Positions 2,727-63,018 of a DNA stretch of 64,000 nucleotides are shown here, piece by piece (within the stretch, counting starts at the first letter, position 1; the number at the start of each line of letters is the position of its first letter). Both the position numbers and the translations under genes were made by a program. The DNA is taken from positions 18,687-82,686 of the forward strand of contig JADJVF010000011.1 in NCBI GenBank assembly GCA_016716705.1, given 5' to 3'. The notes under the pieces are model-generated. The model searched no databases, had not been told where the DNA came from, and worked only from the letters and a program-made list of their open reading frames with translations. The DNA is from Holophagales bacterium (GTDB lineage Bacteria > Acidobacteriota > Thermoanaerobaculia > UBA5066).

Positions 2727-2827
2727 GTCGGGATTCTGTCGGTTGTTCGCCCGCGGGGTCAACGCAGGCGTCGATAGAGACCGAGGGGGCGGAGAAGGGG
2801 AAGAGCCGGCCCGAGGCCGGCCGCACG

Positions 2828-23302: not shown

Positions 23303-26300
23303 ATGAGAGAAGAGGCAAGAGGACATTCCCGGGGCATCGTCCCCATCGCGGCAGCGGCCCTGGGAGCGGCGCTGCTCATCGGGGCCGGCACCGCCCAGGC
23401 TGGCGTCAAGTATCTCGGTGACGGGGCCGTCCAGAACGCCCGCGGAGGCTGGGACCTTCCCAAGCAGGGAGCCTGCCCGGCCGACCTGACGGCCAAGACC
23501 CGTCCCGACTGCGTTGCGCGCCGGTTCGTCGCCAAGGACTCGGCGGCCTGCACGGCGCTCGGCGCCAGCGGCGCCTACTCCTGGAGCACCGGCGTCTGCA
23601 ACGACCTCGTCAACAAGACCGAGGCCGCCTGCAAGGCGTCCACGGACCGCTACTGGAACGCCGCCGCCAGCGTCTGCGCCGTCGTGATGCAGGACGACGA
23701 CCGCAACGCGATCAACTGCGCCCAGCACGGTGGCACGTGGGTCACGGCCGGTAACTGCACGGCCGCGTGGGTCATGCCGGCCCGGGACGACTCGTCCTAC
23801 GGCGCAGGCGGGCTGCTCACGTCCAACGGCGCGGGCGACCAGTGCCTTCGCTGCCACAACACCGTGACCCAGTACAACGGGCCTCGCGTCCGCGACACGA
23901 ACTTCACGCTGATGCAGGGCCACAAGAACATGGCCCGGCCCGTCGACGCCGCCTTCAAGCCCTGGGGCGGGCCGCCGTTCTCCTGCACGGGCAAGGCGAC
24001 GGCCACCGACGAGCACGAGTGCGTCGCCGCCGGCGGGACGTGGGACCCGACGATCTACCCCGCCGACGACTCCGGGAACACCATCAACTGGACCAAGAAC
24101 ACCATCACCACGAGCGCCGGGACCTTCGACCTCAAGTGGATCTACGGCGACTGGCTCGGCCCGCTCCCCCGCGCGATCTACACGGGGGCCACGCTCAACA
24201 ACATGAGCTACTCGTGCGGCCGCTGCCACACGACCGGCTGGACGAGCGACGCGGGGACGACCCCGAACGCGAAGAAGCACCCCGAGCTGGACTTCCCGGG
24301 CATCACCTGGAACGGCACCGGGACGACCGGCCAGGTCAAGCTGGGCGGCGGCGTCGCGGGCGACAAGAACGTCATGTCCTCGTGGGACCAGTGGGGCATC
24401 ACCTGCTCGCGCTGCCACAGCAGCGCCGTCGACGACGCGACCTCGGGGCCGCCCTACAGCGCCCCGGCGGGCATGTCGACCCACCACAACGCCCTCACGA
24501 GCCCGAACGCCAACAACGGCGCCTGTACCGACGTCCGCTGGTCGAGCGCTCCCTCGGGCTCCACTCTCGAAGCCGCCTGCAATTCCACCGGCGGCACGTT
24601 CCTGACGGCCTGCAGCGTCAACCCGACCCCGGGTGTCTGCACGGCGGCCGCGAATACGAAGGACAAGTGCACGGCGGTCGCCGGCACCTGGGTGGCCGCG
24701 AAGGCCGGCTGGTGCAGCAACGCGTTCTACGGCGACTCGGCGAGCTGCACGGCGAACAAGTACACGTGGACCGACGGCTGGTGCAAGACGGCCGACGCCC
24801 AGGCCGCCTGCACGGGCGGTACCGGCGACGCCGCCAAGACCTGGCGCGCCAACGGCAGCCAGGCTTCATGCCAGGTGGCCGGCGCGGCCTGGACCTTCTC
24901 GAAGTGCACGGTCGAGGGCTACTGCAGCGCCGGGACCTGCAGCGACGTGAAGTACACGAACCAGAGGGACTGCACCGAGGCGGGCAAGACCTGGTGGGCC
25001 ATCCGGTCGAAGTCGGCCTGCGACACGGTCGGCGGTCAGTTCGCCTACGCGACCGACGTCGTCACCTGCGGTGACGCCGGCGGCCGGTGGTTCGGGAACA
25101 ACACGAACCGCGGCCAGATCATCACGTCGGTCTGCATGGACTGCCACCGCCAGGAGACGAGCGGCCTCCCGAACACGAACGGCAGCTGCAGCGACGGCAA
25201 GACGACGACGCAGGGCGCCTGCGTCGCCGCCGGCGCGACCTGGACCGAGACGGGTAACGGCCTGCCGGTCACGGTCGGCCCGTACCACAACACCGTCACG
25301 TTCCCGAGCCACCCGGCCGGCAACCAGTTCCTCAACAGCCCGCACGCCAAGTTCAGCGGCAAGTGGAGCGATATCGCGTCGGGCAAATACGACGGCTCGT
25401 CCGCCGGCAAGTACCAGAGCTCCTTCATGGCCCTCGGCGAGGCCTCCGGCACGGGCAACGGCTGCACGGGCTGCCACGAGATCCACACGAGCATCGTGGT
25501 CGGCGAGAAGCCCTTCCGCGAAGAGTGCAACACCTGCCACCACGTGAAGAACCTCGAGCACCTCATGCACCCGGCGGGCCACGGAACGCCGCTCGAGAAG
25601 GCGGAAGAGGACCCGATGGAAGCCTGCGTCATGTGCCACATGCCGGAGGGGCAGCACCTCTTCCGGATCAGCACCGACGCGGCCTACTCGACCTTCCCGC
25701 CCGCGCAGGCGATGACCGCCAACACGTCGGCGAACACCGCCCCCGACGGCAGCTACACGAACGCCGTCTGGGTCGACCTCGACGCCGCCTGCGGCCAGTG
25801 CCACGGCGGCGGCGCGGCGAACGCGAAGACGACCGGCACCATCGCGACGGGCTCGGCCGCCCTCACGGTCGCGAGCACGACCGGGCTCGCCGTCGGCGAG
25901 CGGATCAACGTCGCCGGAGCGGGCGCGTTCGCCAAGTCGGGCTCCTGGTACGACCTCCACACCTACGTCAAGGCGATCGCGGGCAACGTCGTCACGCTCG
26001 CCGGCACCGCGACCCACGGCGTCACGAACGCCGCGGTCACGCAGAACCCGACGACGAACGGCGCGAGCTACGTGACCAAGGCGAACCTCGCCGTCCTACG
26101 CGAAGGGAATCCACAACGACAGCCCGGAGGCGAGATTCACGGTGAAGCAGGGAGCCAACGAGCTGACGGTCGCGGTCGATGCCTCCGGTACCAAGTGCCG
26201 CGGCAGCGCCGCGAACTGCGGCGCCTTCGACTGGAACTGGGGCGACAACACCGCGCACGGTTCCGGCAAGACGGCGACGCACACCTACGCCGCTCCGGGC

Positions 26301-26678
26301 AACTACACCATCACCCTGACGGTCGAGGACGAGGAGACGGGCACGGGCAGCGCCACCCAGACCTTCGCCGCCAAGGCGATCCCCGGGGCGCCCACCGTGA
26401 CCGGCACCTGCACGCCCGACTACCCGAAGGCGAGCGTGAGCTGCGCGGTGACCGTGCCCACCGGGGGCTACGCGAGCGTATCCGTCTACTTCGGTGAGGG
26501 CTATAACGTGGACAAGGTCAGCAACCCGGCCGCCGGAACGCTGACCATGACCCACACCTACCAGCAGTTCGACAACTACACGATCATGGCGACGGCCACC
26601 AACGCCGCCGGCCAGTCGACGACGGCTCCGATCGGGTTCATGGCCCGGGGCCTGTTCGTCAACGACAAGAACAGGTAG
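23303..26678 (+). CDS. secreted multihaem c-type cytochrome (8 CxxCH) with a Cys-rich GGTW repeat array and C-terminal PKD domain; apparent frameshift near 26076-26141
   Basis: ATG at 23303, RBS AAGAGGAGGG. Signal peptide. Haem motifs CLRCH, CGRCH, CSRCH, CMDCH, CTGCH, CNTCH, CVMCH, CGQCH. The PKD motif FDWNWGDNTAHGSGKTATHTYAAPGNYTITLTVED lies in the +1 frame, which opens after TGA 26073-26075. GGAGG lies 11 nt before GTG 26142, so a separate PKD ORF is possible. Confidence 0.7.
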
Positions 26679-26962
26679 ATCGTCACGGGGAGGGGCCGGC
26701 GGGGACTCCCGCCGGCCCTCCATCGCAATCCAAGGGGTTCAGGGGCCGCAATCGCGGCCCCTTCTTTTCGGTGCAGCCGCCCGACCTGTCGGAATAGGGC
26801 AGTAAGCAGGCCCGCCCCTCGAGAGCCCTCGAAAGTTCTTGCGTGGGATCTCGAGAGGAGCGACACTACCGTGTAACAGGACCATTTCGGGCCGCATTTC
26901 ACCGGCAAAAGGTGTATGCGGCCCGAAGTGTTTTCAGGGTGCCTAACGAGAAGGAGGGTCAT

Positions 26963-28926
26963 ATGCGGGTACGGCTGATCGTGTATTTCGGGGTGGTTCT
27001 TGCGGTGCTCCTCCTGGCCCTCATTCCGGGCGCGGCGGTCTCCCCCACGGGGTGGACCGTCGTCGCCTGGAACAACCTCGGGATGCACTGCATGGACGCC
27101 GACTTCAGCGTCTTCGCCATCCTGCCGCCCTACAACACGATCCAGGCGCACGTCGTCGACGCTTCCGGAAAGCTCGTGAAGAGCTCGTCGTCCGTCACGG
27201 TGACGTACGAGGCCGTCGCCGACCCGACCGGCTCCATCAACACGACGTCGCAGGGCAAGACGAACTTCTGGGACCACGTCGTGGCGCTGTTCGGCGCGTC
27301 GCTACCTGTCGACGCGGGGCTCGCGGGGAAGGACATGCCGGGGTCCTCGAACGCGCCAAAGCCGATGACGTTCGATGCCTCGAAGAACTGGTTCATCGCC
27401 GAGGGGATCCCGATCACCCCGTACGACGACGCGGGGAACAAGAATCCCTACCCGATGATGAAGGTGACGGCCCGTGACACCTCGGGCAACGTCCTCTCGT
27501 CCACTCGCATCGTCCTTCCCGTCTCCGACGAGATGGACTGCCGGACCTGCCACGCCTCCGGCTCGCCCATCGACGCCCGGCCGGCCGCGGGCTGGGTCTT
27601 CGACCCGGACCCCGAGCGGGACTACCGCCTGAACGTCCTCCGGCTCCACGACGAGGCGGCCGCCTCGAGCCCGGCGTATGCGCCCGCCCTCGCGGCGGCC
27701 GGGTACGACCCAGCGGGCCTCTACGCCAATGTCACGGTCCGGGGAAAGCCGATCCTCTGCGCCGCGTGCCACGCCTCCGAGGCGCTCCCCGGCAGCGGCC
27801 AGGCCGGCATCCCGCCGCTCACCCAGGCCGTTCACGCCCGGCACGCGGGGGTCAACGACCCGACGAACGGGCAGCCCCTCGGCTCCTCCACGAACCGGTC
27901 GGCCTGCTACCGCTGCCACCCCGGCTCGGAGACGAAGTGCCTGCGCGGGGCGATGGGAGCGGCGACGGCGGCCGACGGCTCGATGCTCATGCAATGCCAG
28001 GACTGCCACGGCCTGATGGCGGCGGTCGGTGCGACGACGCGCACGGGCTGGTTCGACGAGCCCACCTGCCAGCAGTGCCACACCGGTACGGCGACGAAGA
28101 ACTCCGGCCAGATCCGCTTCACGTCCGTCTTTGACGGGGACGGCAATCCCCGCGTCGCCGCCGACGCGCGCTTCGCGACGAACGTCGACACGCCCGCCGC
28201 GGGCCTCTCTCTCTACCGGTTCTCGAAGGGGCACGGCGGCCTGCAGTGCGCGGCGTGCCACGGATCGACGCACGCGGAATACCCCTCCTCCCACGTGAAC
28301 GACAACCTCCAGAGCCTCGACCTGCAGGGGCACGCGGGGACGATCGGCGAGTGCGCCGCCTGCCACGGCGGGAACGTCCCGCAGACCGTCTCCGGGGTCC
28401 TCACGGGATGCACCCGGTCGGCTCGTCGTGGGTCGACAGGCACGAAGACGCGGCCGAGGGCAGCCTCGCCTCCTGCCGCACCTGTCACGGCGCAGACGAT
28501 CGCGGGACCGTCCTCTCTCGCGGGTTCGCCGAGCGGACCCTGAAGACGAGGGCCGGTACGAAGACCTTTGCCGCCGGCACGACGTTCGGCTGCTACACCT
28601 GCCACAACGGACCGGACGGCGAGGGGAACCCTCCGGGCGGTGGAACGCCGACCCCCACTCCGACCCCCCGCGTGACCGCGACGCCAGGTCCTACGACCAC
28701 GCCGACCGTCAGGCCCACGAGGACCGCGACCCCGGGCTGGACTTCGACGCCCACCCGGACGCCGACCCGGACTCCGACCGTCCGGCCGACGAGGACACCG
28801 ACGCCTACCCGCCCTCCGCGGTCGACCGCCACCCCCACGCCGACCCGCCGGCCGCGACACGACGGGGACAGCCCGCTCCCCGTGGGTGACCCGGGAGTCG
28901 CGGGACCGGTCCCGATCCGGCGCTGA
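26963..28926 (+). CDS. secreted multihaem c-type cytochrome (7+2 CxxCH) with C-terminal Pro/Thr-repeat tail; apparent frameshift near 28376-28415
   Basis: ATG at 26963 with AAGGAGGG. Signal peptide [27 protein letters not shown]. Haem motifs CRTCH, CAACH x3, CYRCH, CQDCH, CQQCH in frame A. CRTCHGA and CYTCHNG, then (T/R)PT repeats, in the -1 frame, which ends at 28926. Confidence 0.7.
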
Positions 28927-39508: not shown

Positions 39509-41245
39509 TCACGCCAGCGGCGAGACGAAATCGAAGGCCTTCACGTCCACCAGCCCCCTGTCCGTCAGCTTCAGCTCAGGGATGACCGGCAGCGCGAGGA
39601 AGGCGAGCGTCATGAAGGGGTGGTCGACGGAGGTGCCGAGGGTGTGGGCGGCGGCGTTCGCCCTGCGCTCGGCGAGGTCGACGTCTTCCATCCGCGAATT
39701 GGACATGAGCCCCGCGACGGGAAGGGCCACCTGGGCGAGGACCTGTGCGCCGTCCGCGATGACGATGCCGCCGCCGATCTCGGCGGCCCTTCGGACGGCG
39801 GTCTCCATGGAAGCGTCGTCGCATCCGACCACGACGACGTTGTGGGAGTCGTGGGCAACGGAAGAGGCGATGGCGCCTCGGGCGAGGCCGAAGCCGCGCG
39901 CGAAGGAGACGCCGACGTTGCCGGTGCCGCGGTGGCGCTCGACGACGGCGAGCTTGGCGAGGTCGCGCGAGGGGTCGGCGGCTGCCGCGCCGTCGACGAC
40001 GCGGGCCTCGGCGGTCGCGGAGCCGGTGGCGAGGGAGCCGGGGTGGACCTCGATGACGCGAATGTGCGCGCCCGGCGTTGCGGCGAGGCGGAAGCGCGTC
40101 GCGTCGAATCCGTCGAGGCGGAAGGACGGCCCCTCGGAGATGCCGCGCGAGGGGATGTCGACGAGGAGCTTGCCTCCCTGCGCGACACGGCGCCCGCCGA
40201 GGACGACGAGGTCGGGGCGGACGTCCTCGAGCGCGGCGAAGGTGACGAGGTCGGCGCGGAAACCGGGGGCGATGGCGCCGCGGTCGCGGAAGCCGTAGTG
40301 CCGCGCGCACGACCAGGACGCGAGGCGGAAGGCGAGGACCGGGTCGAGGCCCATCGCGATGGCGCGGCGGACGTGGTGGTCGACGTGGCCGTGGGTGAGG
40401 AGGTCCCACGGGTGGCGGTCGTCGGTGGCGAAGGCGAAGCGCTCGGAGTTCGTCGCGGTGACGAGCGGGAGGAGGTCGTCGAGGTTCTTGGCGGCGGTCC
40501 CCTCGCGGATCCAGATCGACATGCCGCGGCGGACCTTCTCGGTCGCCTCGTCGCGGCCGAGGCACTCGTGGTCGGTCCGGATCCCCGCGCCGATGTAGGC
40601 GTTGAGGTCGAGGCCGGTCAGGAGCGGCGAGTGGCCGTCGATGGGGAGAGAGCGGGAGACGGCGTCCTCGATCTTGGCGCGGACGCCGGGGTCGCCGAAG
40701 AGGAAGCCGGGGACGTTCATCATCTCGGCGAGGCCGAGGACGTTCCTGCGCCCGTAGAAGGGGGCGAGGTCGTGGGCGCCGAGCGTCGCGCCGGCCGTCT
40801 CGAGGTGCGTCGCCGGGACGCACGAGGGGAGCATGACGTGGATCTCGACGGGAAGATCCGCCGCGGAGGCGAGGAACGCCTCGAGCCCCTCGGCACCTCG
40901 GACGTTCGCGATCTCGTGCGGGTCGGTGACGACGGCAGCCGTGCCGTGGACGGCGGCGAGGCGCGCGAAGACGGGAGGGGTCGTCATCGTCGACTCGATG
41001 TGGATGTGGGCGTCCCAGAAAGCGGGGGCGAGGAAGGCGCCCTTCAGGTCGATCTCATTCTCGGGGCGGGCCGCGCGGTAGGGTCCGAAGCCGAGGATCC
41101 GGTCTCCCGCGACGCCGACCGTCTCCTCGTGGATCTCGCCCGTCAGGACGTTGACGACCCGGGCGTTCCGGAAGACGAGGTCGGCGGGGACCGTGCCGCG
41201 GGCGGCGTCGACGAACGCGGAGAGGGGGAGCTTTCCAGAGGGCAT
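39509..41245 (-). CDS. ade: adenine deaminase
   Basis: ATG at 41245 (RC) with GGAGG upstream. Amidohydrolase metal motifs (…AFWDAHIHIES…) and an adenine-deaminase C-terminal domain. Confidence 0.8.
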   Translation of the reverse strand: MPSGKLPLSAFVDAARGTVPADLVFRNARVVNVLTGEIHEETVGVAGDRILGFGPYRAARPENEIDLKGAFLAPAFWDAHIHIESTMTTPPVFARLAAVHGTAAVVTDPHEIANVRGAEGLEAFLASAADLPVEIHVMLPSCVPATHLETAGATLGAHDLAPFYGRRNVLGLAEMMNVPGFLFGDPGVRAKIEDAVSRSLPIDGHSPLLTGLDLNAYIGAGIRTDHECLGRDEATEKVRRGMSIWIREGTAAKNLDDLLPLVTATNSERFAFATDDRHPWDLLTHGHVDHHVRRAIAMGLDPVLAFRLASWSCARHYGFRDRGAIAPGFRADLVTFAALEDVRPDLVVLGGRRVAQGGKLLVDIPSRGISEGPSFRLDGFDATRFRLAATPGAHIRVIEVHPGSLATGSATAEARVVDGAAAADPSRDLAKLAVVERHRGTGNVGVSFARGFGLARGAIASSVAHDSHNVVVVGCDDASMETAVRRAAEIGGGIVIADGAQVLAQVALPVAGLMSNSRMEDVDLAERRANAAAHTLGTSVDHPFMTLAFLALPVIPELKLTDRGLVDVKAFDFVSPLA

Positions 41246-41375
41246 GGGAGCCTCCGGCCGTAGCCTAGACCGGGACGGGTCCGGAGGCGAAATCGAGCGC
41301 CGCCCCCAGCGGAAATGCGGAAACCCGGGGCTGTCATTCGCGTAGGATGAGGACACACCAAAAGGAGGGTTCCCC

Positions 41376-42176
41376 ATGTCCGAGCGCACGGAACTGCTGC
41401 CGGGTTCTTTCTGCTGGCCCGAGCTGGCCACCCCCGACTCCACGAAGGCGAAGGCGTTCTACGCCGGCCTCTTCGGCTGGGCCGCCTTCGACGTGCCTTC
41501 GGCCGGAGGCGCCTACACGCTCTTCCAGCTCCGCGGGCTCGACGTCGCGGCGTGCCGGACGCTGAGCGAGGACGAGAAGGCGCAGGGGATCCCGTCCTAC
41601 TTCATGACGTACATCTCGACGGCCTCGACGGACGCGTCGGCCGCGAAGGCGGCCGAGCTGGGCGGGAAGGTCCTCTTCGGGCCGTTCGACGTCGAGGGGA
41701 TCGGCCGGATGGCGGTCGTCATGGACCCGGGCGGCGTCGTCTTCGCCCTCTGGGAGGCGCGGGGGCACATCGGTGCACGCCTCGTGGGCGAGGAGAACAC
41801 ACTCTGCTGGACCGAGCTCGTCACGAAGGACGCCGACGGCGCGAAGGCGTTCTACGGCGGCCTCTTCGGCTGGACGTGGAAGGAGTCGGAGGTCAGCGGT
41901 CCCGCCGAATACCACGAGATCCACCGCGACGGGCAGGCGATCGGCGGAATGCTGCCGATGAAGGGCCAGTGGTGGGGCGACGTTCCGCCTCACTGGATGC
42001 CCTACATCTTCGTGTCGGACTGCGACGCGTCCGCCACGAAGGCCGCCGAGCTGGGCGGTGCGGCGGTGGTGCCGCCGACGGACATCCCGCACGTCGGCCG
42101 CTTCGCGGTCCTGCACGACGACCAGGGGGCGCACTTCTCGGTCATCGCGATGGCGCCGATGCCGGTGACCGCCTGA
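41376..42176 (+). CDS. tandem VOC (glyoxalase/bleomycin-resistance/dioxygenase) domain protein
   Basis: AAAAGGAGGG RBS. Two repeats of CW(P/T)EL…T(P/K)D…AK(A)FY(A/G)GLFGW. Confidence 0.75.
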   Translation: MSERTELLPGSFCWPELATPDSTKAKAFYAGLFGWAAFDVPSAGGAYTLFQLRGLDVAACRTLSEDEKAQGIPSYFMTYISTASTDASAAKAAELGGKVLFGPFDVEGIGRMAVVMDPGGVVFALWEARGHIGARLVGEENTLCWTELVTKDADGAKAFYGGLFGWTWKESEVSGPAEYHEIHRDGQAIGGMLPMKGQWWGDVPPHWMPYIFVSDCDASATKAAELGGAAVVPPTDIPHVGRFAVLHDDQGAHFSVIAMAPMPVTA

Positions 42177-53013: not shown

Positions 53014-55122
53014 GTGCCTGCTACGCTCGCCGCCGTGACCACCGCGCGCCGGGCGGCGACACCCCGCGGCCCCTTCGACCGCTTCCCGGCCCGGTTTGGT
53101 TGGATTTTCGCCGGGGCGCTCCTGGCGCTGCTCGCCGCGTGGATCCAGTCGGTTCTCCCCCTGACGGCGATCGGCGGCGCCAGCGCGGACGACGCCCTTT
53201 ACGTGAGGCTCGCCGAATCCGCCGCGCGGGGAGAGTGGCTCGGCCCCTACGACGAGTCGACGCTCAGCAAGGGGCCGTTCTTCCCCCTCTTCGTGGCGGC
53301 GGCCTTCCGCGCCGGGGCTCCGCTCTTCGACGCCGAGCGGGCGCTCTACGTAGCGGCCTGCGCGCTCTTCGTCCTGGCCGTCGCTCCGGTCGTGCGCACG
53401 GAGTGGGGGCGACTCCTCCTCTTCTCGCTCCTCGTGTTGAACCCCGTCGTCGTGACGCGCGCGGTGCGGGAGGGGCTCTACCCCGCGTTGACCCTCCTCG
53501 TCCTCGCGGGAGGCGTCGGCGTCCTCTGCTGGCTCCCCACGTCGTACCGGCGGGCGGCGGCCTGGGCGGGCCTCTGCGGCGTTTCGCTCGGAGCGCTCTG
53601 GCTGACCCGCGAGGAGGGGATCTGGATCGTCCCGGCGGTGGCGCTGCTCCTCGGGGCTGCCGTCCTCCGCGCGGCGACGGACTCCGCGGCGAGGCATCGC
53701 CTGCTGCGCGCCACGGTCCTCGCGCTCCTGCCGCTCCCGATCGCGGCGGTCTGCGTCCAGGCGGTGGCACTCCGGAACCGGGCGGCTTACGGCGTCCCGA
53801 CGGCGTGCGAGTCGACGGACCGCCCGTTTACCTCAGCATACGGGGCGCTCGCGCGGATCGTCCCGTCCGACAGGAAGGCGAAGGTCCCGGTTCCCGCGGA
53901 TGTCCGGCGAAAGGCGTACGGGCAGAGCGAGGCCTTCCGGCATCTCGAGCCCTTCCTGGAGGGAGCGGTCGGGGCCGGCTGGTCGGCGATCAGCGCCGCG
54001 AACCTGCCGGAGACGGCAGGCGAGATCGCGGGCGGCTGGTTCCAGTTCGCGATTCGCGAGGCCGCCGCGAAGGCCGGCTTCTATCGGGACGCGACGACGG
54101 CCGCCTCCTTCTGGCGGCGCGTCGCCTCCGAGCTGAACGGAGCGTGCGCGGCGGGGAGACTCGATTGCCTTCCGGAGAGGCACACGCTGACGCCCGTGGG
54201 GGCGCTCGCGCTGGCGCCGACGCTGCTCCGCGGCGTGCCGGAGAACTTCGCCCTCCTCTGTTCCTCGATCGACGCGAGCTCTTCCCGGAACCTCGGGTCG
54301 AGCAGCGGCCCTCCGGGCGCTCGCCTCCTCTTCGCGCGGGTCACGCGCGAGCCCCTCGCGCCGGGGGCCGAAGACCGCCGCTGGGTGACGATCCGCGGCT
54401 GGGCGTATCGCTCCGGCGCGCCTCCGCTGGAGTGGAGGGCTCGAGCGCCGGATGGGACCCCGCTTCCGGTGGCCCAGAGCTGGTCGCCGAGCGGCGACCT
54501 CGTCGAGTGGTTCTCCGACCCTTCCGCGAGCCGGGCGCGCTTCCGCCTCGAGGCGTCTTGCCCCGGACCGTGCGCCGTCGAGCTGACGGAGGCGGGGTCC
54601 GTCCTCCTGCGCTTCGAGCCTTCGGCGCCGGACGAGAGGAGCGGACCGATGCCCGCCGACCTGAAGCTCTGGCTCGACACGGTGAAGGTCCGGCCGCCCG
54701 AACGTGCGGGCGACCGCTGGGGATTGGACGACCTGCGGCGCGGAGCCCTCGACCGGCTCGCGTCGGCCTATGCCCGGGGCCTGGGTCTGCTCCTACCGGC
54801 CGCGGTCGTCCTCTTCGGCGCGACGGCGGCGTGGGCACTCATCCGCCGACGGGCGCCGGTGCCGGTTCTCGTCGGGGCCGCGCTGCTGGGAGCCGTCGTT
54901 TCCCGGATCGTCCTTCTCGACCTCGTCGACCGGACCTCGTTCCCGGCGCTCCACCCGCTCTACTTCGCGCCGGCCTACCCGCTCCTCTACGCCTTCGTCG
55001 TCCTCGCCTTCGTCTCCGCGGCCGGGGCGCTGGGGCGCGTCCCGGCCGCGGAGCGGCTTTCGGCCTACCTCTGGACGAAGGCCACGACCTTCGGCTTCAC
55101 GAGGCGTTCGAAGTCCGAGTAG
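53014..55122 (+). CDS. large polytopic membrane protein of unknown function (N-terminal TM bundle, about 350-aa soluble middle, 3-4 C-terminal TMs)
   Basis: 702-aa ORF with GTG at 53014. Hydrophobic segments at both ends. No motif I can name. The architecture is reminiscent of GT-C-type integral-membrane glycosyltransferases, but that is conjecture. Confidence 0.6.
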   Translation: MPATLAAVTTARRAATPRGPFDRFPARFGWIFAGALLALLAAWIQSVLPLTAIGGASADDALYVRLAESAARGEWLGPYDESTLSKGPFFPLFVAAAFRAGAPLFDAERALYVAACALFVLAVAPVVRTEWGRLLLFSLLVLNPVVVTRAVREGLYPALTLLVLAGGVGVLCWLPTSYRRAAAWAGLCGVSLGALWLTREEGIWIVPAVALLLGAAVLRAATDSAARHRLLRATVLALLPLPIAAVCVQAVALRNRAAYGVPTACESTDRPFTSAYGALARIVPSDRKAKVPVPADVRRKAYGQSEAFRHLEPFLEGAVGAGWSAISAANLPETAGEIAGGWFQFAIREAAAKAGFYRDATTAASFWRRVASELNGACAAGRLDCLPERHTLTPVGALALAPTLLRGVPENFALLCSSIDASSSRNLGSSSGPPGARLLFARVTREPLAPGAEDRRWVTIRGWAYRSGAPPLEWRARAPDGTPLPVAQSWSPSGDLVEWFSDPSASRARFRLEASCPGPCAVELTEAGSVLLRFEPSAPDERSGPMPADLKLWLDTVKVRPPERAGDRWGLDDLRRGALDRLASAYARGLGLLLPAAVVLFGATAAWALIRRRAPVPVLVGAALLGAVVSRIVLLDLVDRTSFPALHPLYFAPAYPLLYAFVVLAFVSAAGALGRVPAAERLSAYLWTKATTFGFTRRSKSE

Positions 55123-55529
55123 TGGAGCTTCATCAGCTCGGTGTGGGAGCCGGCGTTGAACGCGATCTCGGCGTCCTCGGACAGCCTCGGCGCGACGTAG
55201 ACGTCCATGCCGTAGAGGTTGCCGAACGGGGGCATCGCTCCGGCCTCGCAGTCGGGGAAGAGCTCGCGGAACTCGGCCTCGCTCGACAGGACGACGACCC
55301 CTCCACCGGTGACGTCGCGCAGGACCTGGAAGTCGACGCGCTGCGAGGCCGGCAGGACGACCATCACCGGCTTGCCGTCGACCTTCACCATGACGGTCTT
55401 GGCGAGCTCCTTTCCTTTGACGTGCGCGGAGGCGGCGATCTCCTGCGCCGTGTAGGCCGGCGAGTGGACGATCGATACCCAGCGGACGCCGTTCTGGTCG
55501 AGGAATTCCTTCAGCTTCCGGACGGGCAT
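55065..55529 (-). CDS. YbaK/EbsC-like aminoacyl-tRNA deacylase-domain protein
   Basis: ATG at 55529 (RC) with AAGGAGGG. About 154 aa. Resembles the YbaK fold (…VVLPASQRVDFQVLRDV…GAMPPFGN…). Confidence 0.55.
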   Translation of the reverse strand: MPVRKLKEFLDQNGVRWVSIVHSPAYTAQEIAASAHVKGKELAKTVMVKVDGKPVMVVLPASQRVDFQVLRDVTGGGVVVLSSEAEFRELFPDCEAGAMPPFGNLYGMDVYVAPRLSEDAEIAFNAGSHTELMKLHYSDFERLVKPKVVAFVQR

Positions 55530-55778
55530 GGGGCCCTCCTTTCCGGCCGAACGGGGCACGCCCCGGCCGGCCCGTACGCGGGCGCTCGGGTCGTCTCGGT
55601 GTGGTGCGGCGCGCTCATGCCGTCACCTCCGAACCGGTTGGGTGGTTCGGTAGAATTCTATTCCCGCAACGCAGCCGACGCGCGCTGCGAAGCAGCGTAG
55701 CGAGGCCGCGTCGCGGGTCGCCGAAGGATCCACCTGGAAGAGGACCGCACCGGGACCGACGCTGGTCCGGTGTCCGGT

Positions 55779-57017
55779 TCAGTCTCCCCTGGACAGCGTC
55801 TCCGCATTCCTCCCGAACCGTTCGAGCTGGATCTCCTCGAGGACGGCGGCGAGCTCGGGGCGCTGGGCCAGGAGGGCGAGGAGGTCGGGACCGGAGAGCC
55901 AGAGGAGCTCCGTGTCGGTGACGGCGGCGACGCTCGCGGTCCGGGGGCGCGATCGCACCGTGGCGAGATCACCGAAGAACTCGTGAGGCGTCAGAAGTGC
56001 GAGTGCGACGTCGCGTGGTCCCCGTCTCACCGTCACCCGGACGGCCCCGCGCCGGACGAGGTAGATACCGGCGTCGCTCGCCCCTTCCCGGATCACGACC
56101 TCCCCCGGTTTCGCGGCGACGGGTTTCAGCCGCCGGGCGAGAGCGTCGCGATCGGGGCGTGGCAGGTGGCCGAAGAGGCGGGAACGCGCGAGGACGCCGT
56201 CGAGGACCCTCTCGGCGAAGAGCCGCGAGAGGGCATCGGCCACGTGACGGTGCTTCTTCACGAGCGGGGTGAGCGCGTTCCGGTCGAGCTCGAGGAGGTC
56301 GACGCGTGTCCGCGCCTGGACGGTGGCCGTGCGCGGGACGCCGCTGAGGAAGGAGATCTCGCCGGCGACGTCGCCCGGGCCGAGGATCCCGAGGAGGACC
56401 GTCGCGCCGCCGTCGCCCTTCGCCGAGACGACGAGCTCCCCGGCCGCGACGAAGGAGAGGGAGCTCCCCTCGTCGCCCTCCGCGAAGAGCCTCTCCCCGG
56501 CCGCGAGCGTCCGGAGGTGGATCTTCTCGAGGACGAGCTCGAAGAGAAACGGCGGGATGTCCTTGAGGAGCGGGATCTCCTTCCGCAGGGCGTGGACCTT
56601 TTCCGACTTCCTTCGCCGTTCGGCCATCTCGGCGGGCGGCGGGGCCGCGGGCCCGTCGACGGCTGGCGCTTCCGACTCCGCCTTCGCTTTCGCGGTCGCT
56701 TTTGCGGTCGCCTCGAGGATCTTCTTCAGCTCGATCTGCGAGAGGAAGCTGGACGTGACCTCGGCCTTCGGATCGAGCTCCTCGACCTTCTTGTAGACGG
56801 CGATCGCTTCGACGAGCTTCCCGGACTTCTGGAGCCGCGGTCCGGCCCGATTGAGGACCTGGACAGCCTCCCGGGAATCGCCGCCCGACGCGAGGGCGTC
56901 GGCGAGACGGAGGACCGCGGCCGTGTCGCCCGGATCGTCGCGCAGCCGGCGCCGGCACTCCTCGACGGTTTCCTTCAGGCGGGCTTCACCGCTCGTCCGG
57001 CCTTCGAACAGGGTCAC
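55779..57017 (-). CDS. TPR-like N-terminal domain plus two cyclic-nucleotide-binding domains
   Basis: GTG at 57017 (RC). Helical TPR-like 80 aa, a Lys/Ala-rich linker, then two cNMP-binding folds (…FAEGDEGSSLSFVAAGELVV…GEISFL…; …IREGASDAGIYLVRRGAVRV…FFGDLA…). Confidence 0.65.
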   Translation of the reverse strand: MTLFEGRTSGEARLKETVEECRRRLRDDPGDTAAVLRLADALASGGDSREAVQVLNRAGPRLQKSGKLVEAIAVYKKVEELDPKAEVTSSFLSQIELKKILEATAKATAKAKAESEAPAVDGPAAPPPAEMAERRRKSEKVHALRKEIPLLKDIPPFLFELVLEKIHLRTLAAGERLFAEGDEGSSLSFVAAGELVVSAKGDGGATVLLGILGPGDVAGEISFLSGVPRTATVQARTRVDLLELDRNALTPLVKKHRHVADALSRLFAERVLDGVLARSRLFGHLPRPDRDALARRLKPVAAKPGEVVIREGASDAGIYLVRRGAVRVTVRRGPRDVALALLTPHEFFGDLATVRSRPRTASVAAVTDTELLWLSGPDLLALLAQRPELAAVLEEIQLERFGRNAETLSRGD

Positions 57018-57139
57018 GGACTCATCGTACGACGGGAGCGGCCTCGCGGCAGACCGCCATCCGGCTCGGGCATTGCTGCATTGCAGTAAGATCGGGAGAG
57101 GACAGGGTGGCCCATCCCGGGGCCCCCGAGGAGGCCGAA

Positions 57140-57328
57140 ATGAAAGCCGAGCCCCGCTCCTCCAGCCGAGAAGCCGTGATCCTGGTGGAGGAACCGGCGA
57201 CCGCCTGCACCAACTGCCCGGTCTGTGGAAGCGAGGAGTGCCTGATGCTCGAGGAGCTCGGGACCTACTGCTCGACGATGACGGCCACGAGTCTGGCGAA
57301 CCGGGAGGCGGACCGGACGCGGCACTGA
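57140..57328 (+). CDS. small Cys-rich protein (62 aa; CxxCxxCx4C…C)
   Basis: ATG at 57140 with GAGGAGG 5 nt upstream (57128-57134). MKAEPRSSSREAVILVEEPATACTNCPVCGSEECLMLEELGTYCST…. Lies between the cNMP-binding protein gene and the GGDEF gene. Confidence 0.4.
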   Translation: MKAEPRSSSREAVILVEEPATACTNCPVCGSEECLMLEELGTYCSTMTATSLANREADRTRH

Positions 57329-57377
57329 GGAGCGCCGGGAGGGACGGGAGCCGCCGGACGCGCCTATCATCGCCCCG

Positions 57378-58610
57378 TTGCTCTCCGCAATCGTCCTCCT
57401 GTCGGCAGCCCCCGGGCGGGGCCCGGCCTTCGAGAGCGTTCGCGCGCCGGCTCCCGGGGTGACGGAGCTCCTGCCGGCTCTCGTGATCCCGGCCGCTTCC
57501 GCCGTGGCGATCGCCACGCTGGGTCTCGTCGCCCTCCTCTTCTTCGGCCGCGACCGGAGCCGGCGTGACCTTCTCCTCTACGCCCTCCTCGCGGCGGGCC
57601 TCACGACGTATCTCGCCGCAGGTCTGCCTCTGTGGTCGAACGACCCCGGGAGACTTCGTGCCGCGCTCGCCCTCCTTCTCCCGGCTCTCGCCTATCTCCT
57701 GCTCCTGCGTTTCCTCGAGCTGCCGCATACCCGCGTCCGGCTCGCTCTCCTCGCCCTCCCGGCCGCGGGCCTCGTTCTCGTGATCGCGGTCCCGTCGGCG
57801 GGGCGGGTGTCGGGATGGCTGGAAGCCGCCTCTCTGATCGTCTTCGGGGGGGCAGCCCTCCTCGATCTCGCGAGACTCCACCGGCCCGACGGCGCCCTGC
57901 TCTTCGCGGCGACGGCGGCCCTCCTCCTCGCCGCGCTCTTCGACGCCGCCGCCTCGCGGGACGTCCTCCTTCCCGGCCTCTCCCCGCCGCCCCTCGTCGG
58001 CCCCGCGTTCCTCCTCTTCACGGCGCTTCTCCTCGTGGCCGTGGCGGACCAGGGGCGGATGATTCTCGAGCGGGCGACGACCGACTCCCTGACCGGGCTC
58101 CCGAACCGGGCGACGTTCCTCGATCGGGCCCGGCGGGAGCTGGCCCGCGCGGAGCGCAGCGGCAGCTCCCTCGCCCTCGCGATGCTCGACATCGACCGCT
58201 TCAAGCGGTTCAACGACCGCTACGGCCACCAGGCCGGCGACCGGGTCCTGGCCCAGGCCGGCCGGGCCGTCGCCGGGGCCGTACGCGGCATCGACATCGC
58301 CGGGCGTTACGGAGGCGAGGAGCTCGTCCTCGTCCTCGTCGACGTGGAGGCGGACGCGGCCGTGGCCGCGGTCGAGCGGGTCCGGGCCGCCATCGCCGAG
58401 GTTCGTCTCCCGAACGTCCAGGAGGCCGTCACGGCGTCGGCGGGAGTGGCGCTGCATCACGGCGCATTCGACAGCGCGGACGTCGCCGGGCTGATCCGGA
58501 GGGCGGACCAGGCGCTCTACCAGAGCAAGGAGGAGGGCCGCGACCGGACGACACTCGAATCGCGAGGGCCTGATCACCCGACGTCGCCCGCAGAAGTCCG
58601 CTACCGCTGA
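57378..58610 (+). CDS. membrane-anchored diguanylate cyclase (GGDEF)
   Basis: Six or more N-terminal TM helices, then a GGDEF domain with an active-site RYGGEE and an I-site RGID five residues upstream. The TTG start at 57378 is uncertain. Confidence 0.8.
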   Translation: MLSAIVLLSAAPGRGPAFESVRAPAPGVTELLPALVIPAASAVAIATLGLVALLFFGRDRSRRDLLLYALLAAGLTTYLAAGLPLWSNDPGRLRAALALLLPALAYLLLLRFLELPHTRVRLALLALPAAGLVLVIAVPSAGRVSGWLEAASLIVFGGAALLDLARLHRPDGALLFAATAALLLAALFDAAASRDVLLPGLSPPPLVGPAFLLFTALLLVAVADQGRMILERATTDSLTGLPNRATFLDRARRELARAERSGSSLALAMLDIDRFKRFNDRYGHQAGDRVLAQAGRAVAGAVRGIDIAGRYGGEELVLVLVDVEADAAVAAVERVRAAIAEVRLPNVQEAVTASAGVALHHGAFDSADVAGLIRRADQALYQSKEEGRDRTTLESRGPDHPTSPAEVRYR

Positions 58611-58728
58611 AGCGGCTCCCGGGCGCTGGGCCGGTGGCCTCGCTGATCACGACTCGACGGACGGGAACCCCGCCAGGCGTACGGAGCGTTGCCTGCCCTC
58701 CGGACTCCGCTGGTAAGATGCGATTTCG

Positions 58729-59211
58729 ATGTCCGCCGACACCGGAATTCGCGATGTGGTGACGGGGCTCTACGTCCGCGAGTATTTCGACGACGTCATC
58801 GCGCGCGAGCTGGAGCGGTCGCGCCGCCACGAGATCCCGCTCTCGGTCGTGTCGGTCGTGATCCGCGACTTCGAGTCCCTCGAGGCGGCAGGCGAGGAGG
58901 CCACCGTCTCCGTCCTCGTGGAGATTGCACGGGAGCTGGGACGGAACGTTCGCGAGACGGACCACCTCTTCCGGTGGGAGGCCGACGAGTTCCTCCTCCT
59001 CCTGTTCGGGGCCGACGGGGCCGCCTGCGAACAGAAGGTGCAGCAGCTCGACCAGCTCTTCAGGCCCTGGCGGGACGGCGACGGGCCGGTGCCGGTCGGA
59101 GTCCGGATCCGGGTCGGCGGCGCCACCCACGAGAGCGACATCGTCTTCGCGTCGGTCCTGCAGGCCGCCCGCGCGATGGCCCGGCCGGGCGTCGCCGCGG
59201 TGCCGGGCTGA
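58729..59211 (+). CDS. stand-alone degenerate GGDEF domain protein (RWEADEF) retaining an RxxD I-site
   Basis: 160 aa. The GGDEF fold with the signature replaced by EADEF, preceded by RETD at the canonical I-site spacing. Confidence 0.55.
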   Translation: MSADTGIRDVVTGLYVREYFDDVIARELERSRRHEIPLSVVSVVIRDFESLEAAGEEATVSVLVEIARELGRNVRETDHLFRWEADEFLLLLFGADGAACEQKVQQLDQLFRPWRDGDGPVPVGVRIRVGGATHESDIVFASVLQAARAMARPGVAAVPG

Positions 59212-59230
59212 ACGATCCTAGAGTAGAAAA

Positions 59231-59794
59231 TCAAGACCTGACCCCAAGGCTCCGGACGAGGCGGAGGGGGAGGCCGATGACGTTGGAGGGGGTCCCGGAG
59301 ATCCGCTCCACGAAGAGCCCGCCGAGGCCCTGCAGGGCGTAGGCGCCCGCCTTGTCGGCCGGCTCGCCGGAGGCGACGTAGGCGTCGACCTCGTCGTCGG
59401 TCATCGAGGCGAAGACGACCTCGGTCGTCTCGCGCCCCGACACGAGAACCCCGTCTCGAGCGAGGGCGACCCCCGTGACGACGTCGTGCGCGCGGCCGCG
59501 GAGAGCGCGGAGCATCCGCCGGGCGTCCTCGTCGTCGCGAGGCTTCCCGAGCGCCATGCCGTCGAGGACGACGATCGTGTCCGCGGCGAGGACGACGGTC
59601 CCCGCCGGTGCCGAGGACGCCACGGCCGAGGCCTTGGCGCGGGCGAGCCGCTCCGCGGCATCGTGGGCGTCCTCGCCCGGGAGCAGCGACTCGTCCACGT
59701 CGGCCGGCCGGACCTCGGGCTCGAGCCCGAGGGCGCGGAGGAGGTCGAGGCGGCGGGGTGAGGACGAGGCGAGGAGGAGACGCGGTCGGCTCAC
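59231..59794 (-). CDS. maf: Maf-family nucleoside triphosphate pyrophosphatase
   Basis: …[15 protein letters not shown]… N-terminal Maf motif. GTG at 59794 (RC), 12 nt after the upstream gene's stop. An alternative ATG at 59878 would overlap that gene by 72 nt. Confidence 0.7.
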
Positions 59795-59805
59795 GGCGGC
59801 TGAGT

Positions 59806-62800
59806 CTAGGGGTAGTAGCCGCTGATCGTCCGCGCCTCGAGGTTCGTCGGCGTCATCTTCACCTCGATCTTCCGCCACGCCGATCCCTTCCTCGCCGGGG
59901 GCGTGTAGGTGAGGAGGTACTGGCTCCGGAGCTCCTCGTCGATCTCCTTGTAGACGCCGGACAGCCCCTTGGCCGAGTCGACGTAGTAGACGGTGCCGCC
60001 GGTCTCGCGCGCCATCCGGTTGATCTTCGTCCTCACGTCGAACTGCGTTCCGCCGATCTTCAGCCCGATGAAGTAGATCGCCACGCCGGTCTTGCGCGCG
60101 TAGTCGAGGGCCGCCTCGAACGTGAACTTCGAGGCCCGGTCGGCGCCGTCGGAGAGGATGACGTAGGCCTTGCGCCCCTTCGTCCCCTGGTACTGGTAGA
60201 GGCCGTAGACGACGGCGTCCCAGAGCGAGGTCGAACCCTGGGCCCTGAGCCCCGCGAGCGCCTGGGCGAGGCGCTCGCGGTCGGTCGTGAAGCGGGAGAC
60301 GAGCTGCGGCTCGTTGTCGAACGTGACGAGGAAGGTCCGGTCGCGGGGCGTCATGATGCTCCGGAGGAAGTCGTTCGCGGCCTTCTGCGCCTCGGGCAGG
60401 GTCTCCTCCATCGACCCCGACGTGTCGACGCCGACGCCGAGGGAGAGCGGGAGGTTCGTGACGACCTCGAAGGCGTCGACCTCCTGGGGGGCGCCGTCCT
60501 CCAGGATGCGGAAGTTCGTCTTCGAAAGCCCCGTGACGGGGCGCCCCTTGGCGAAGACCGAGGTGTAGAGCTCGACCGCCTGGACGTCGACCTCGGAGAG
60601 GTACTTCGGCGCGTTGATGTAGCGGACGTCCTCGGTGACGTCGCCGTCCTCGAGGGTGGCCACGACGCGGAGGAAACCGATCTCGCTGCGGCGCGGGACG
60701 TCGACGACCTGCTGGAAGGGGGGCTGGAAGAGCGTCGCGGCGCGCGTCTCGTTGACGAAGATCTCGAGCTTCTGGAGCTTCTTCGTCTCGGGAACGGCGA
60801 GGTCGGCGACGACGCGCACCGGACCGAAGATGCTGATCCCCTTCTCCGGCGCCGTGATCTTCACCCGGAACGCTTCGCGCCCCTCGTTCAGCACGACCTC
60901 GTCCTCGGAGAGCATCTTGCCGTCCCTCGAGAATCCGGTGACCTTGATCGTCCGCTTCCGCGGGAGCTCGCCGAGGTCGAGGTCGGCCTCGAAGGGAGGC
61001 CGCCGGTCGGTGACGATCTTCCGGCCGTCGAGGTAGAACTCGGCGAAGGCGATGTCGTCGGAGCTGGCGCGCGTCTCGAATTTCACGACGCCGGTCGCGA
61101 ACTCGCGCGCGATCGGCAGGAGCGTGAGGACACCTCGCTCGTTCGGAGAGGAGACGAGCCGCGCGAGAGCGGCCTTGGCCGACTCGCGGGCCGCCTTTTC
61201 TTCGGGGGAGAGGAGCTGGTCGGGCGACTCGGGGACGACGACCTTCTCGTCGATGAGGGCGGCGGCGTTACGGTTCGAGTCGGCGATCTTCACCTTCAGG
61301 CGGTACTCGCCGGGGTAGAGGAAGCGCTCGAGGTTGAGGGGGAGGAAGGCCCCCTTCACCGTCGAGGCGGGGAAGTCGAAGCGATACCGGAAGTTGTCGA
61401 CGAGCTTGCCCCCCTTGACGATCTCGCCGACGACGTCGAGGTCGTAGAAGGTCTCCTCGCCGAGAGCCTTGGTCCCGAGGGTCGCGCGCTCGAGGAGGAC
61501 GGAGATCTCCATCCGGATCTTGCTCGCGACCATCTCGGGAAAGCGGAGGACCCGCTGGACCGGGAGCTTCGCCGCGGCCGGGTCGACGTCCGTCGTCATC
61601 AGGAGGATCTTGTCGACGCCCTCCACGTCCGGCTTCGGCCCCTCCTTCAGCTCGTCGATCAGCCTCTGGGCGCCCATCGTCCCGAAGAGGCCGGTCGCGG
61701 ACGCCATCGCGCTGTTGATCTCCCTCCACTCGCCGCAGCGCGTGACGTCGACCGTTCGGCCGGTGCCGATCCCCGCGAGGCCGGCGATGCCGCCGACGAG
61801 GAGCGCCTGGGGGCCTTCGAGCGGCGTCCAGAGCCGAAAGTCTCCCGTCCCGAAAGGCTGGTAGAAGAGGAGCGAGACCTTGCTCATCCGGAGCGTCTCG
61901 AGGCGCTCGTAGAACCAGATCTCGAGCGGGTTGTAGATGTCCTGGCAGTCGATGCGCCGGAAAGCGTCTGGCGGGCCGTTGATGAGGAAGATCCTCCCCT
62001 GGTCGGTGTTGACGTTCCGGAACCGCTCCTTGACCGTCTGGAGTCTCAGCTCGTAGATCTCCCGGAACGCGACCCTCTGCCCGTCCGAATCGACCGAGCG
62101 CCGCTTCCAGAAGTCCTCGATGAAACGGTCCCGCTGGTAGTCGGAGGCGAGGCGGAGGAACGTCGCCTCCTCGACCTCGGCGAGGATCGGCTCGACGTCG
62201 GACAGGAACTGCCTGTAACGGTCGGGCAGGGCGGCAATCGCCTGCTTGCGCTCCTTCCCCGAGAGCTTCTTCGCCGAAAGGACGAGGGGCGCCGCAGCCC
62301 CGGCCGGGGCCGAGGCCGTCGGTCCGGAGAGGGGGACGGCGAGGGCGGCGCGCTCGCGCAGGCCTCCGGCGGTGTCGGCCTGGCGGGAGGAGATCGCCCG
62401 GTAGGCGGCCTGGACGAGAGTGGTGTCGGCGCAGCCGAAGGCGCTCTCCGTGAGAGCGTCGAGCGGCTTGTCGGCCTGGGACTTCGGCGCGAGGAGCACC
62501 GATTCGCCGTCGATGACGGTCCAGTAGCGGGAGATCCCGGTCCCCGGCTCGGGGAAGAACAGCATCCGGACGTTCGTACCGAGGAGGCGGTGAGTGAGGT
62601 AGGTCCAGACCTCGACCCGGGCGAAGAGGTTCGGGCAGGAGACGATCCGGCGGGCGTCAGGCCCCCCCCCGGAGGCGACCCACACGGAGGCACGATCGTC
62701 GTCGAGACGGCCGAAGAGGGTCATCGCCTCGGCCCGGAGCGACTGGATCGGGTCTGGTTCCTGGCGGGTGACCTCGACGCCCTTCGAGGCGTCGGCAGGG

Positions 62801-62886
62801 GTGGCAGGAGGCGCCTGCGCGGGCGCGTCGGCTGCGAGGAGAGCCGAAGCCACGAAGGCGAGCCATCGAGCCTGGTTCCGGACCAT
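59806..62886 (-). CDS. 1026-aa secreted GWxTD-domain protein with C-terminal von Willebrand factor A domain
   Basis: ATG at 62886 (RC) with GAGGAGG. Signal peptide [25 protein letters not shown]. GWxTD-like block [25 protein letters not shown] motif VDTSGSM near the C-terminus. Confidence 0.8.
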
Positions 62887-63018
62887 GGACGTTCCTCCTC
62901 GGCACCCGCCTCCCGACCATGCAAGATGGGGACCGTATCCGAAGTGTACGGCGCGCACCGGGAAGGGTTCGTGAGGGAGGGCACGGGCCCCGCTCGGTCC
63001 TCACTAGAATCCTCCGGA

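Follow-up and report, generated by a model that had tools for sequence, protein, structure and literature searches.

The 64-kb window analysed here, by which is meant the whole 64,000-nucleotide stretch of a Holophagales bacterium contig, contains four adjacent open reading frames (ORFs) at positions 55779-59211, termed A, B, C, and D, which encode a protein with predicted cyclic-nucleotide-binding (CNB) domains, a Cys-rich microprotein, a membrane-bound GGDEF protein, and a small degenerate GGDEF protein, respectively. The preferred interpretation, which we regard as standing about evenly between right and wrong, is that they constitute a lineage-specific cyclic di-GMP (c-di-GMP) signalling unit assembled around the older gene D. 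As second-messenger neighbourhoods go, the locus is genuine but rather ordinary; on the comparative evidence, D predates the putative cyclase C and is not dedicated to it. The four genes are as follows.

55779-57017, minus strand: gene A, a 412-residue soluble protein with an N-terminal tetratricopeptide repeat (TPR) region, a low-complexity linker, and two CNB domains
57140-57328, plus strand: gene B, a 62-residue Cys-rich microprotein, C23-x2-C26-P-x-C29-GSEE-C34-x9-C44, with a GC content at third codon positions (GC3) of 0.89
57378-58610, plus strand: gene C, 410 residues, with ~7 transmembrane helices followed by a GGDEF domain
58729-59211, plus strand: gene D, a 160-residue single-domain, catalytically degenerate GGDEF protein

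Because long spurious ORFs abound at the ~70% GC of the window, codon-position GC was applied to tell coding ORFs from spurious ones. A, B, C, and D all have a coding signature (GC3 0.88-0.93, with low GC at second positions), which is absent from the ORFs overlapping them in antisense; the four ORFs proposed in a first-pass annotation of this DNA are therefore retained, and the domain calls that it gave for A, C, and D are confirmed by Pfam. The homologues of B, C, and D come from metagenome-assembled genomes of Holophagales and Thermoanaerobaculia (Acidobacteriota); one protein, with 100% identity to B, carries the label Holophagales bacterium, IPL90_10475.

D matches the Pfam GGDEF family at 57.9 bits (cut-off 23.8); membership of GGDEF_2 (PucR-type) was rejected, the score being below threshold (19.7 versus 24.5 bits). 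The AlphaFold2 (AF2) model of D, built from a 20-sequence alignment, has a predicted local distance difference test score (pLDDT) of 90 and a predicted template modelling score (pTM) of 0.85, and its top PDB matches in Foldseek are all GGDEF domains (template modelling scores 0.72-0.81). The order of motifs is that of the family, i.e. an inhibitory site (I-site), R75-E-T-D78, then HLFRW, then EADEF, with RxxD exactly five residues upstream; the translation, RETD-x5-EADEF, bears out the earlier description of a GGDEF motif degenerated to EADEF with RETD retained. In a profile alignment with DgcR, V44, E49, L51, and V60 of D stand in place of the Mg-binding Asp, the Lys, and the guanine-binding Asn and Asp, respectively, and in the former active site (A-site) hairpin, F-R-W-E84-A-D86-E87-F, E84-A85 replace the Gly-Gly of the GGDEF signature, the signature of the D family being ExDE[FL]. 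Because the Mg/GTP residues and the Gly-Gly are replaced, D is predicted to be incapable of cyclase activity.

By contrast with these losses, the R-x-x-D motif is invariant in 19 homologues (alignment A1) and is kept in at least 90% of loci over 40-95% identity, nearly always as R-x-T-D; among 72 clusters of D homologues examined, 68 have RETD, one has RESD, and two gave no match. R75, D78, F81, R82, W83, D86, and E87 are all invariant in the same alignment, and, over loci reaching down to 40% identity, at least 90% retain R75-x-T77-D78 and F81-R82-W83-E84-x-D86-E87, as well as an N-terminal segment, IRD..G...R..FD..I.RE.ER..R. At the sequence level, D thus has the features by which degenerate GGDEF c-di-GMP receptors of the I-site (RxxD) type are recognized, and a receptor role is plausible. 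It may be proposed that D is an ancient single-domain pseudo-cyclase of the Thermoanaerobaculia/Holophagales that would bind neither GTP nor Mg at its former active site and that, because the RxxD inhibitory site is kept, most likely binds c-di-GMP there, probably as an intercalated dimer like that of PssE; it would then pass on the signal by protein-protein contact, or serve as a local sink or adaptor.

Reuse of the I-site of a dead GGDEF domain for ligand binding is known from PelD, PopA, and SgmT, all of which are multi-domain proteins (transmembrane-GAF, REC-REC, and histidine kinase, respectively); D shares the principle, but is a single domain. None of the three is named among the PDB sequence matches of D at E<=0.001, most of which are cyclases of named or active type, DgcR, DosC, and SiaD foremost. 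Closer in outline is PssE (Lmo0531) of Listeria monocytogenes, a degenerate-GGDEF I-site receptor, the isolated GGDEF domain of which binds two c-di-GMP per protein (PMC4125290). In both PssE and D, the GGDEF signature is degenerate and RxxD stands five residues ahead of it, but they have no specific sequence relationship beyond the GGDEF fold, and PssE has an N-terminal portion before its GGDEF domain (residues 107-285; PMC4125290), whereas D is a bare 160-residue domain. Further, PssE is encoded by the last gene of an exopolysaccharide operon, which reveals its target (PMC4125290), whereas D has its own promoter-like element and no operon of a type that would reveal one. In Bdellovibrio bacteriovorus, CdgA (Bd3125), which has an inactive degenerate GGDEF domain and binds c-di-GMP with a dissociation constant of ~2 uM, has been assigned to the DgcB pathway (PMC3271064). 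The logic is the same as that of the C-to-D pairing proposed here, although the CdgA-DgcB pairing was deduced genetically, whereas that of C and D is suggested only by gene adjacency; D, moreover, is shorter than CdgA, has a single domain, and belongs to a family confined to Thermoanaerobaculia/Holophagales. Both the degenerate-GGDEF I-site receptor and its pairing with a particular cyclase are well-established ideas, and nothing in current understanding is overturned by the present results.

The GGDEF domain of C scores 146 bits with Pfam (E=1.1e-42) and follows directly on ~7 hydrophobic helices (residues ~27-230, from hydropathy). The translation contains RGID-x5-GGEEL, in agreement with the intact GGEE motif and I-site described previously, i.e. 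an I-site RGID, then IAGRY, and an A-site GGEEL in which the fifth signature residue is L, not F. In an alignment with SiaD, GcbC, and 3IGN, the elements DxLTGLxNR, DIDxFKxxNDxxGHxxGD, RxxD-x5-GGEE, and KxxGR are all intact, the aligned segments of C being DSLTGLPNR, LDIDRFKRFNDRYGHQAGD, GGEEL, and KEEGRDR; RxxD together with GGEE[LIVMTF] is present in 64 of the 65 C homologues recovered with the N-terminal domain. As far as an alignment can reveal, C therefore carries every catalytic-site feature of an active diguanylate cyclase, and it is predicted to be an active seven-transmembrane-helix cyclase that would be subject to product inhibition through its own I-site. Its GGDEF domain aligns end to end with those of GcbC, YfiN/TpbB, and SiaD, with the catalytic elements and RxxD present, but C differs from these enzymes in having GGEE[L/I/V] instead of GGEEF and an unclassified, clade-restricted ~7-transmembrane-helix module, for which no matching Pfam or NCBIfam family was found and which has homologues in the window clade only (64-89% identity). 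In NCBIfam, C passes the generic GGDEF domain model TIGR00254 (157 bits) and falls below the cut-off of every named diguanylate cyclase equivalog (SiaD, DgcA, PleD, YfiN, and others), the best being SiaD (166 bits versus a cut-off of 290).

The case for a unit, rather than a set of neighbours, comes principally from comparative genomics, for which the window proteins were mapped by tblastn onto 51 species-level genome loci around D relatives, plus metagenome contigs, and called ORFs were clustered. D occurs class-wide in the Thermoanaerobaculia/Holophagales (40-95% identity), whereas A and C are found only where D is at least 68% identical. There, A (minus), C (plus), and D (plus) form an uninterrupted block, seen in 13 species-level genomes as well as additional metagenome contigs, in three different flanking contexts. 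In the window type, a tRNA_edit gene precedes A-B-C-D, and Maf and VWA genes follow; in a sublineage without B (loci L011 and L058-L061), A-C-D, with a C-D gap of 32 nt, lies between GH1 and MazG genes; and in locus L016, A-B-C-D lies between a radical-SAM gene and a Ser/Thr kinase gene. Because the block is contiguous in three contexts, with both rearrangement breakpoints falling just outside it, the linkage of A, C, and D has probably been selected, the position of the breakpoints being the strongest indication of this. It may be that, in one subclade, a B-C operon and the divergent gene A were placed directly upstream of D and that the A-C-D block has since been held together through rearrangements; this retention suggests that C supplies c-di-GMP locally to D and would be its nearest supplier in the subclade. 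The earlier view of a self-contained module stands as regards the contiguity of A, C, and D in the three contexts, but it is weakened by the dispensability of B and by the promoter-like element belonging to D itself.

The same comparison can be read in another way, namely that there is no functional module, the adjacency being synteny inherited within one close clade and the proteins acting independently in global cyclic nucleotide monophosphate (cNMP) or c-di-GMP pools. The tRNA_edit, Maf, and VWA flanks are equally syntenic in most relatives; D and A have separate promoter-like elements; D is older than A, B, and C, and B has been lost in one sublineage. At one exceptional locus (L021, 1-6474), moreover, the C orthologue and D lie ~5 kb apart, with a gene for a sigma-54 activator between them, an arrangement which may be an intermediate or an expanded form of the cluster; the activator shows AAA+ and a weak match to REC, and the L021 interval also has additional ORFs to which no Pfam family matches. 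It is difficult, however, to reconcile independence with breakpoints that fall exactly outside A...D in the three contexts, or with the finding that each C orthologue seen adjoins A where the upstream flank is visible, every one of them being within 5 kb of D. We consider the absence of a module unlikely, while granting it real weight.

In deep relatives, D lies between a divergent adenine deaminase gene and a convergent Maf gene, with a VWA gene usually next. In the window, the adenine deaminase gene (39509-41443) is 17 kb upstream of D, such that ~17 kb, including A-B-C, separates genes that are adjacent elsewhere; this interval appears to be a lineage-specific insertion or rearrangement. 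It contains genes for a glyoxalase, an MFS protein, a racemase, a SnoaL-domain protein, a Na/H exchanger-TrkA, a 702-residue membrane protein, and tRNA_edit, as well as A, B, and C.

Of 50 species-level D loci, 29 have a second GGDEF-domain gene no more than ~5 kb from D; it is C in 14 of them and, in the other 15, which are distant loci, a gene for a GAF-PAS-GGDEF-EAL protein of ~1050 residues, located between Maf and VWA, one gene from D. The latter is a further association of D with a GGDEF enzyme, independent of that with C.

~7-10 kb in locus coordinates, L026, L028, L029, L037, L038, L040, L043, L046, L047, L049-L052, L054, and L056: GAF-PAS-GGDEF-EAL gene

An ad hoc GGDEF hidden Markov model found no GGDEF gene elsewhere in the flanks, and no GGDEF domain besides those of C and D in the whole 64-kb window. 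The association suggests that D is tied to c-di-GMP enzymes in general, with the limitation that only two or three evolutionary events lie behind it. It also bears on a further explanation, in which D is a regulatory pseudo-subunit. It would heterodimerize with a GGDEF domain, that of C or of another cyclase, e.g. the GAF-PAS-GGDEF-EAL protein, and tune cyclase output by keeping that domain in an unproductive pair, the two I-sites of which may be cross-linked by c-di-GMP. Cyclases require GGDEF homodimers, and since they do, a dead GGDEF monomer would be a natural competitor; D keeps the whole GGDEF fold with an invariant FRWExDEF hairpin, it adjoins GGDEF enzymes in two different arrangements, and C likewise carries RxxD. 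Against such a role, ~21 D loci have no GGDEF enzyme within the available flank, and it overlaps the receptor model rather than excluding a receptor role. We regard it as improbable, if not negligibly so.

The most persistent feature across the class is the convergent pairing of D with Maf. Nearly everywhere, D is convergent with a gene for a house-cleaning nucleoside triphosphate (NTP) pyrophosphatase, the 3' ends touching or overlapping (59211-59231 in the window; 10489-10492 in L001); this enzyme is Maf in most genomes and, in the sublineage without B, MazG, another NTP pyrophosphohydrolase. The convergence may be a coincidence. Alternatively, D might function without c-di-GMP, binding another nucleotide or a protein via its ExDEF hairpin, in which D86 and E87 are invariant, perhaps in connection with the convergent Maf/MazG enzyme. 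We think this very unlikely: convergent genes share no transcript, the base-binding and Mg-binding residues of D have been lost, and the invariance of RxxD is the classic signature of an I-site.

Returning to the proposed c-di-GMP unit, its likely transcriptional organization can be described from candidate signals in the intergenic regions. The promoter-like elements upstream of A, B, and D came from comparative alignment alone, and a scan with the sigma-70 consensus gave no promoters and no relevant terminator.

57024-57029, minus strand: TACGAT, candidate -10 element of A, 6 nt before its GTG start, with no Shine-Dalgarno sequence
57074-57092, plus strand: near-palindrome TGCTGC-N3-GCAGTA, upstream of B, overlapping a -10-like TAAGAT
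57128-57134, plus strand: GAGGAGG, Shine-Dalgarno sequence of B, 5 nt before its ATG
58711-58719, plus strand: TGGTAAGAT, extended -10-like element, 9 nt upstream of the ATG of D, with no Shine-Dalgarno sequence

The element upstream of D, CTG[GA]TAAGAT, is invariant in the window clade; in deeper relatives its place is taken by TAGGAT, TAACAT, or TACAAT, and the most distant have GATAAACT together with a GGAGG Shine-Dalgarno sequence. A -10-like box occurs at a similar position upstream of D in most of the related loci across the class (L007-L056). These alignments suggest that D is transcribed from a promoter of its own, as an mRNA with little or no leader, which is in keeping with its status as a stand-alone gene in most genomes. 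B, C, and D are on the same strand, with gaps of 49 and 118 nt. Because no terminator-like hairpin was found between C and D, read-through from C into D is possible; the RNA of the C-D gap folds no better than shuffled sequence (z = +1.8), and thus shows neither a structured element nor a terminator.

The A-B intergenic region is variable except for the palindrome and TAAGAT, which are invariant in the intergenic alignment (A4), as is the Shine-Dalgarno sequence of B. TGCTGC-N3-GCAGTA occurs once in the window, where 0.01 occurrences are expected by chance, and each of the 14 B-bearing loci compared has a single copy of the palindrome, upstream of B, whereas the loci lacking B have none; a variant, TGCTGCATTGCGGTAGAAT, precedes a B homologue of 44% identity on L064. 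The region at 57074-57092 is thus a candidate operator as well as a candidate promoter for a B-C transcript. A sigma-54 promoter at this motif was considered and rejected, as the motif lacks GG-N10-GC spacing and conservation does not extend to its upstream part.

In each of the 14 loci with B that were compared, B lies ahead of C, and so does the 44% identical homologue on L064, which has a C-like N-terminus encoded downstream; B and C are, on this evidence of gene order, a conserved pair. Close homologues of B (50 clusters, 51-86 residues, 57-100% identity) have an invariant core, CxxCPxCGSEECLxLEELGxYCxTM. In an exhaustive profile search of 1.84 billion representatives, only 22 clusters at 50% identity are recovered, all of them small proteins, across which C23, C26, P27, C34, L40, G41, and C44 are invariant. 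B proteins of the window clade have five Cys residues, four of which are invariant in the wider family, so the label 'Cys4' given to B initially is acceptable. Neither Pfam nor NCBIfam has a family that applies (DUF7567, 16.8 bits versus a cut-off of 27; no match in NCBIfam), and B is an orphan family with a probable metal site. Its AF2 prediction is poor (pLDDT 52), as expected of a metal-dependent microprotein. One sublineage, that of L011 and L058-L061, lacks B, and B is on these grounds taken to be dispensable. Distant B-like microproteins do not always adjoin GGDEF genes, two other contigs being too short to judge. Two distant members, at 190-414 of L063 and 1402-1653 of L062, are found one convergent to feoAB and the other divergent from a gene for a BlaI/Penicillinase_R-type repressor, contexts which hint that, outside c-di-GMP signalling, the family has a role related to metals or stress.

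The two CNB domains of A are detected as two stretches of Pfam cNMP_binding (132.7 bits, E=4.8e-39), and its TPR region by TPR_19 (E=1.2e-7). In its phosphate-binding cassettes, domain 1 reads GEISFLSGVPRTATV and domain 2 reads FGDLATVRSRPRTASV, i.e. GE...RTA and GD...RTA in the window genome, with the key Arg in both. CNB domains are shared with CRP/FNR-type and other cNMP-binding proteins, but A has no helix-turn-helix (HTH), and neither an HTH nor an enzymatic output domain was found with Pfam or NCBIfam. Its NCBIfam matches are confined to the CNB parts of CRP, Pat, and similar models, all far below the cut-offs (68 bits versus 266 with the CRP model). A is a CNB protein but, because it lacks an HTH, lies outside the CRP/FNR regulators; its architecture, a TPR region plus two CNB domains, suggests a scaffold. 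Positions T-A-C-x-A-T upstream of A are invariant in the intergenic alignment, and the spacing of the element from the GTG start suggests that A is possibly expressed from a leaderless or near-leaderless mRNA. In the proposed unit, A (responding to cAMP or cGMP?) and B (to metal or redox state?) would be accessory inputs, acting perhaps by contacts of B with C, and of A with C or D. To state that the locus couples cNMP sensing to c-di-GMP synthesis, as was done at first, goes beyond the evidence.

Several observations weigh against the proposed unit, or against I-site binding as the whole function of D, and deserve to be considered together. At ~35 species-level loci, with D at 40-61% identity, none of A, B, and C lies in the immediate neighbourhood of D, and the initial description of D as a 'dedicated' receptor of a 'cognate' cyclase does not hold, the D family being both older and wider. 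D is mostly found without A, B, and C and has a promoter-like element to itself, and so cannot be dependent on C. The A-C-D genomes all belong to one subclade, that in which D is at least 68% identical, so that the conservation of the block could be in part a matter of shared ancestry. The domain 1 cassette of A is degenerate (GV...HPD) in the orthologues of the L011 type, which lack B, although that of domain 2 is conserved. With respect to D itself, no output domain, and no conserved co-transcribed partner pointing to a target, was found. Its FRWExDEF hairpin is as conserved as the I-site, which hints at a function beyond I-site binding alone. Finally, in an alignment with PleD, the position of the intra-domain helper Arg of PleD, R390, appears not to be Arg in D; an invariant Lys, K103, lies nearby.

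Other genes of the window include some that flank the block and some that are distant from it.

855-2888, minus strand: gene with GAF and HD/HD_5 domains and HD, HHE, and GYP motifs, Met at 2726
12098-13027, plus strand: gene with a single cNMP_binding domain, from the domain search
55065-55559, minus strand: tRNA_edit gene, YbaK-type, flanking A
59231-59878, minus strand: Maf gene, convergent to D
59806-62958, minus strand: gene for a large VWA protein, beyond Maf

The HD-GYP gene (855-2726) and the second cNMP-binding gene were both correctly recognized in the first-pass annotation, but they are 43-55 kb away, outside the conserved block, and are not part of its setting. A CBASS-like defence reading was set aside, as cyclase/effector architecture of that kind is not present. 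Elsewhere, a BrkB/YihY membrane domain is fused, unusually, with a C-terminal Rrf2-like (iron-dependent regulator) domain in one ORF (17692-19068). In the region 23303-28543, an ORF of 1064 residues without a Pfam match lies beside a multihaem cytochrome gene (Cytochrome_C7, MtrC/MtrF-like matches), and the many antisense ORFs of high GC3 there suggest an unusual or repetitive composition. The 702-residue multi-pass membrane protein (53014-55122), which has no Pfam family, is 53% identical to part of 1454-residue YfhO-family proteins in L001 and L002; its gene runs 58 nt into the 3' end of the tRNA_edit gene, to which it is convergent.

A more far-reaching version of the preferred interpretation may be envisaged, in which the D family would be an undescribed minimal c-di-GMP receptor or adaptor, made from a leaderless mRNA, beside which different c-di-GMP enzymes would have been recruited more than once (the seven-transmembrane-helix GGDEF protein upstream, GAF-PAS-GGDEF-EAL downstream). 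In this version, B would represent a new kind of metal-binding Cys4 microprotein, serving C as an input subunit for redox state or metal. Taken as a whole, this is decidedly unlikely in our judgement. Acidobacteriota are abundant in soil and wastewater, but their second messengers are not known to have received more than slight experimental attention. Should D bind c-di-GMP, a whole class of bacteria would share an I-site receptor of very small size that is easy to purify, and the C-D pair would be a convenient system for work on local signalling from cyclase to receptor; the B-C pair, in addition, would allow the partnership of a microprotein and a membrane cyclase to be put to the test.

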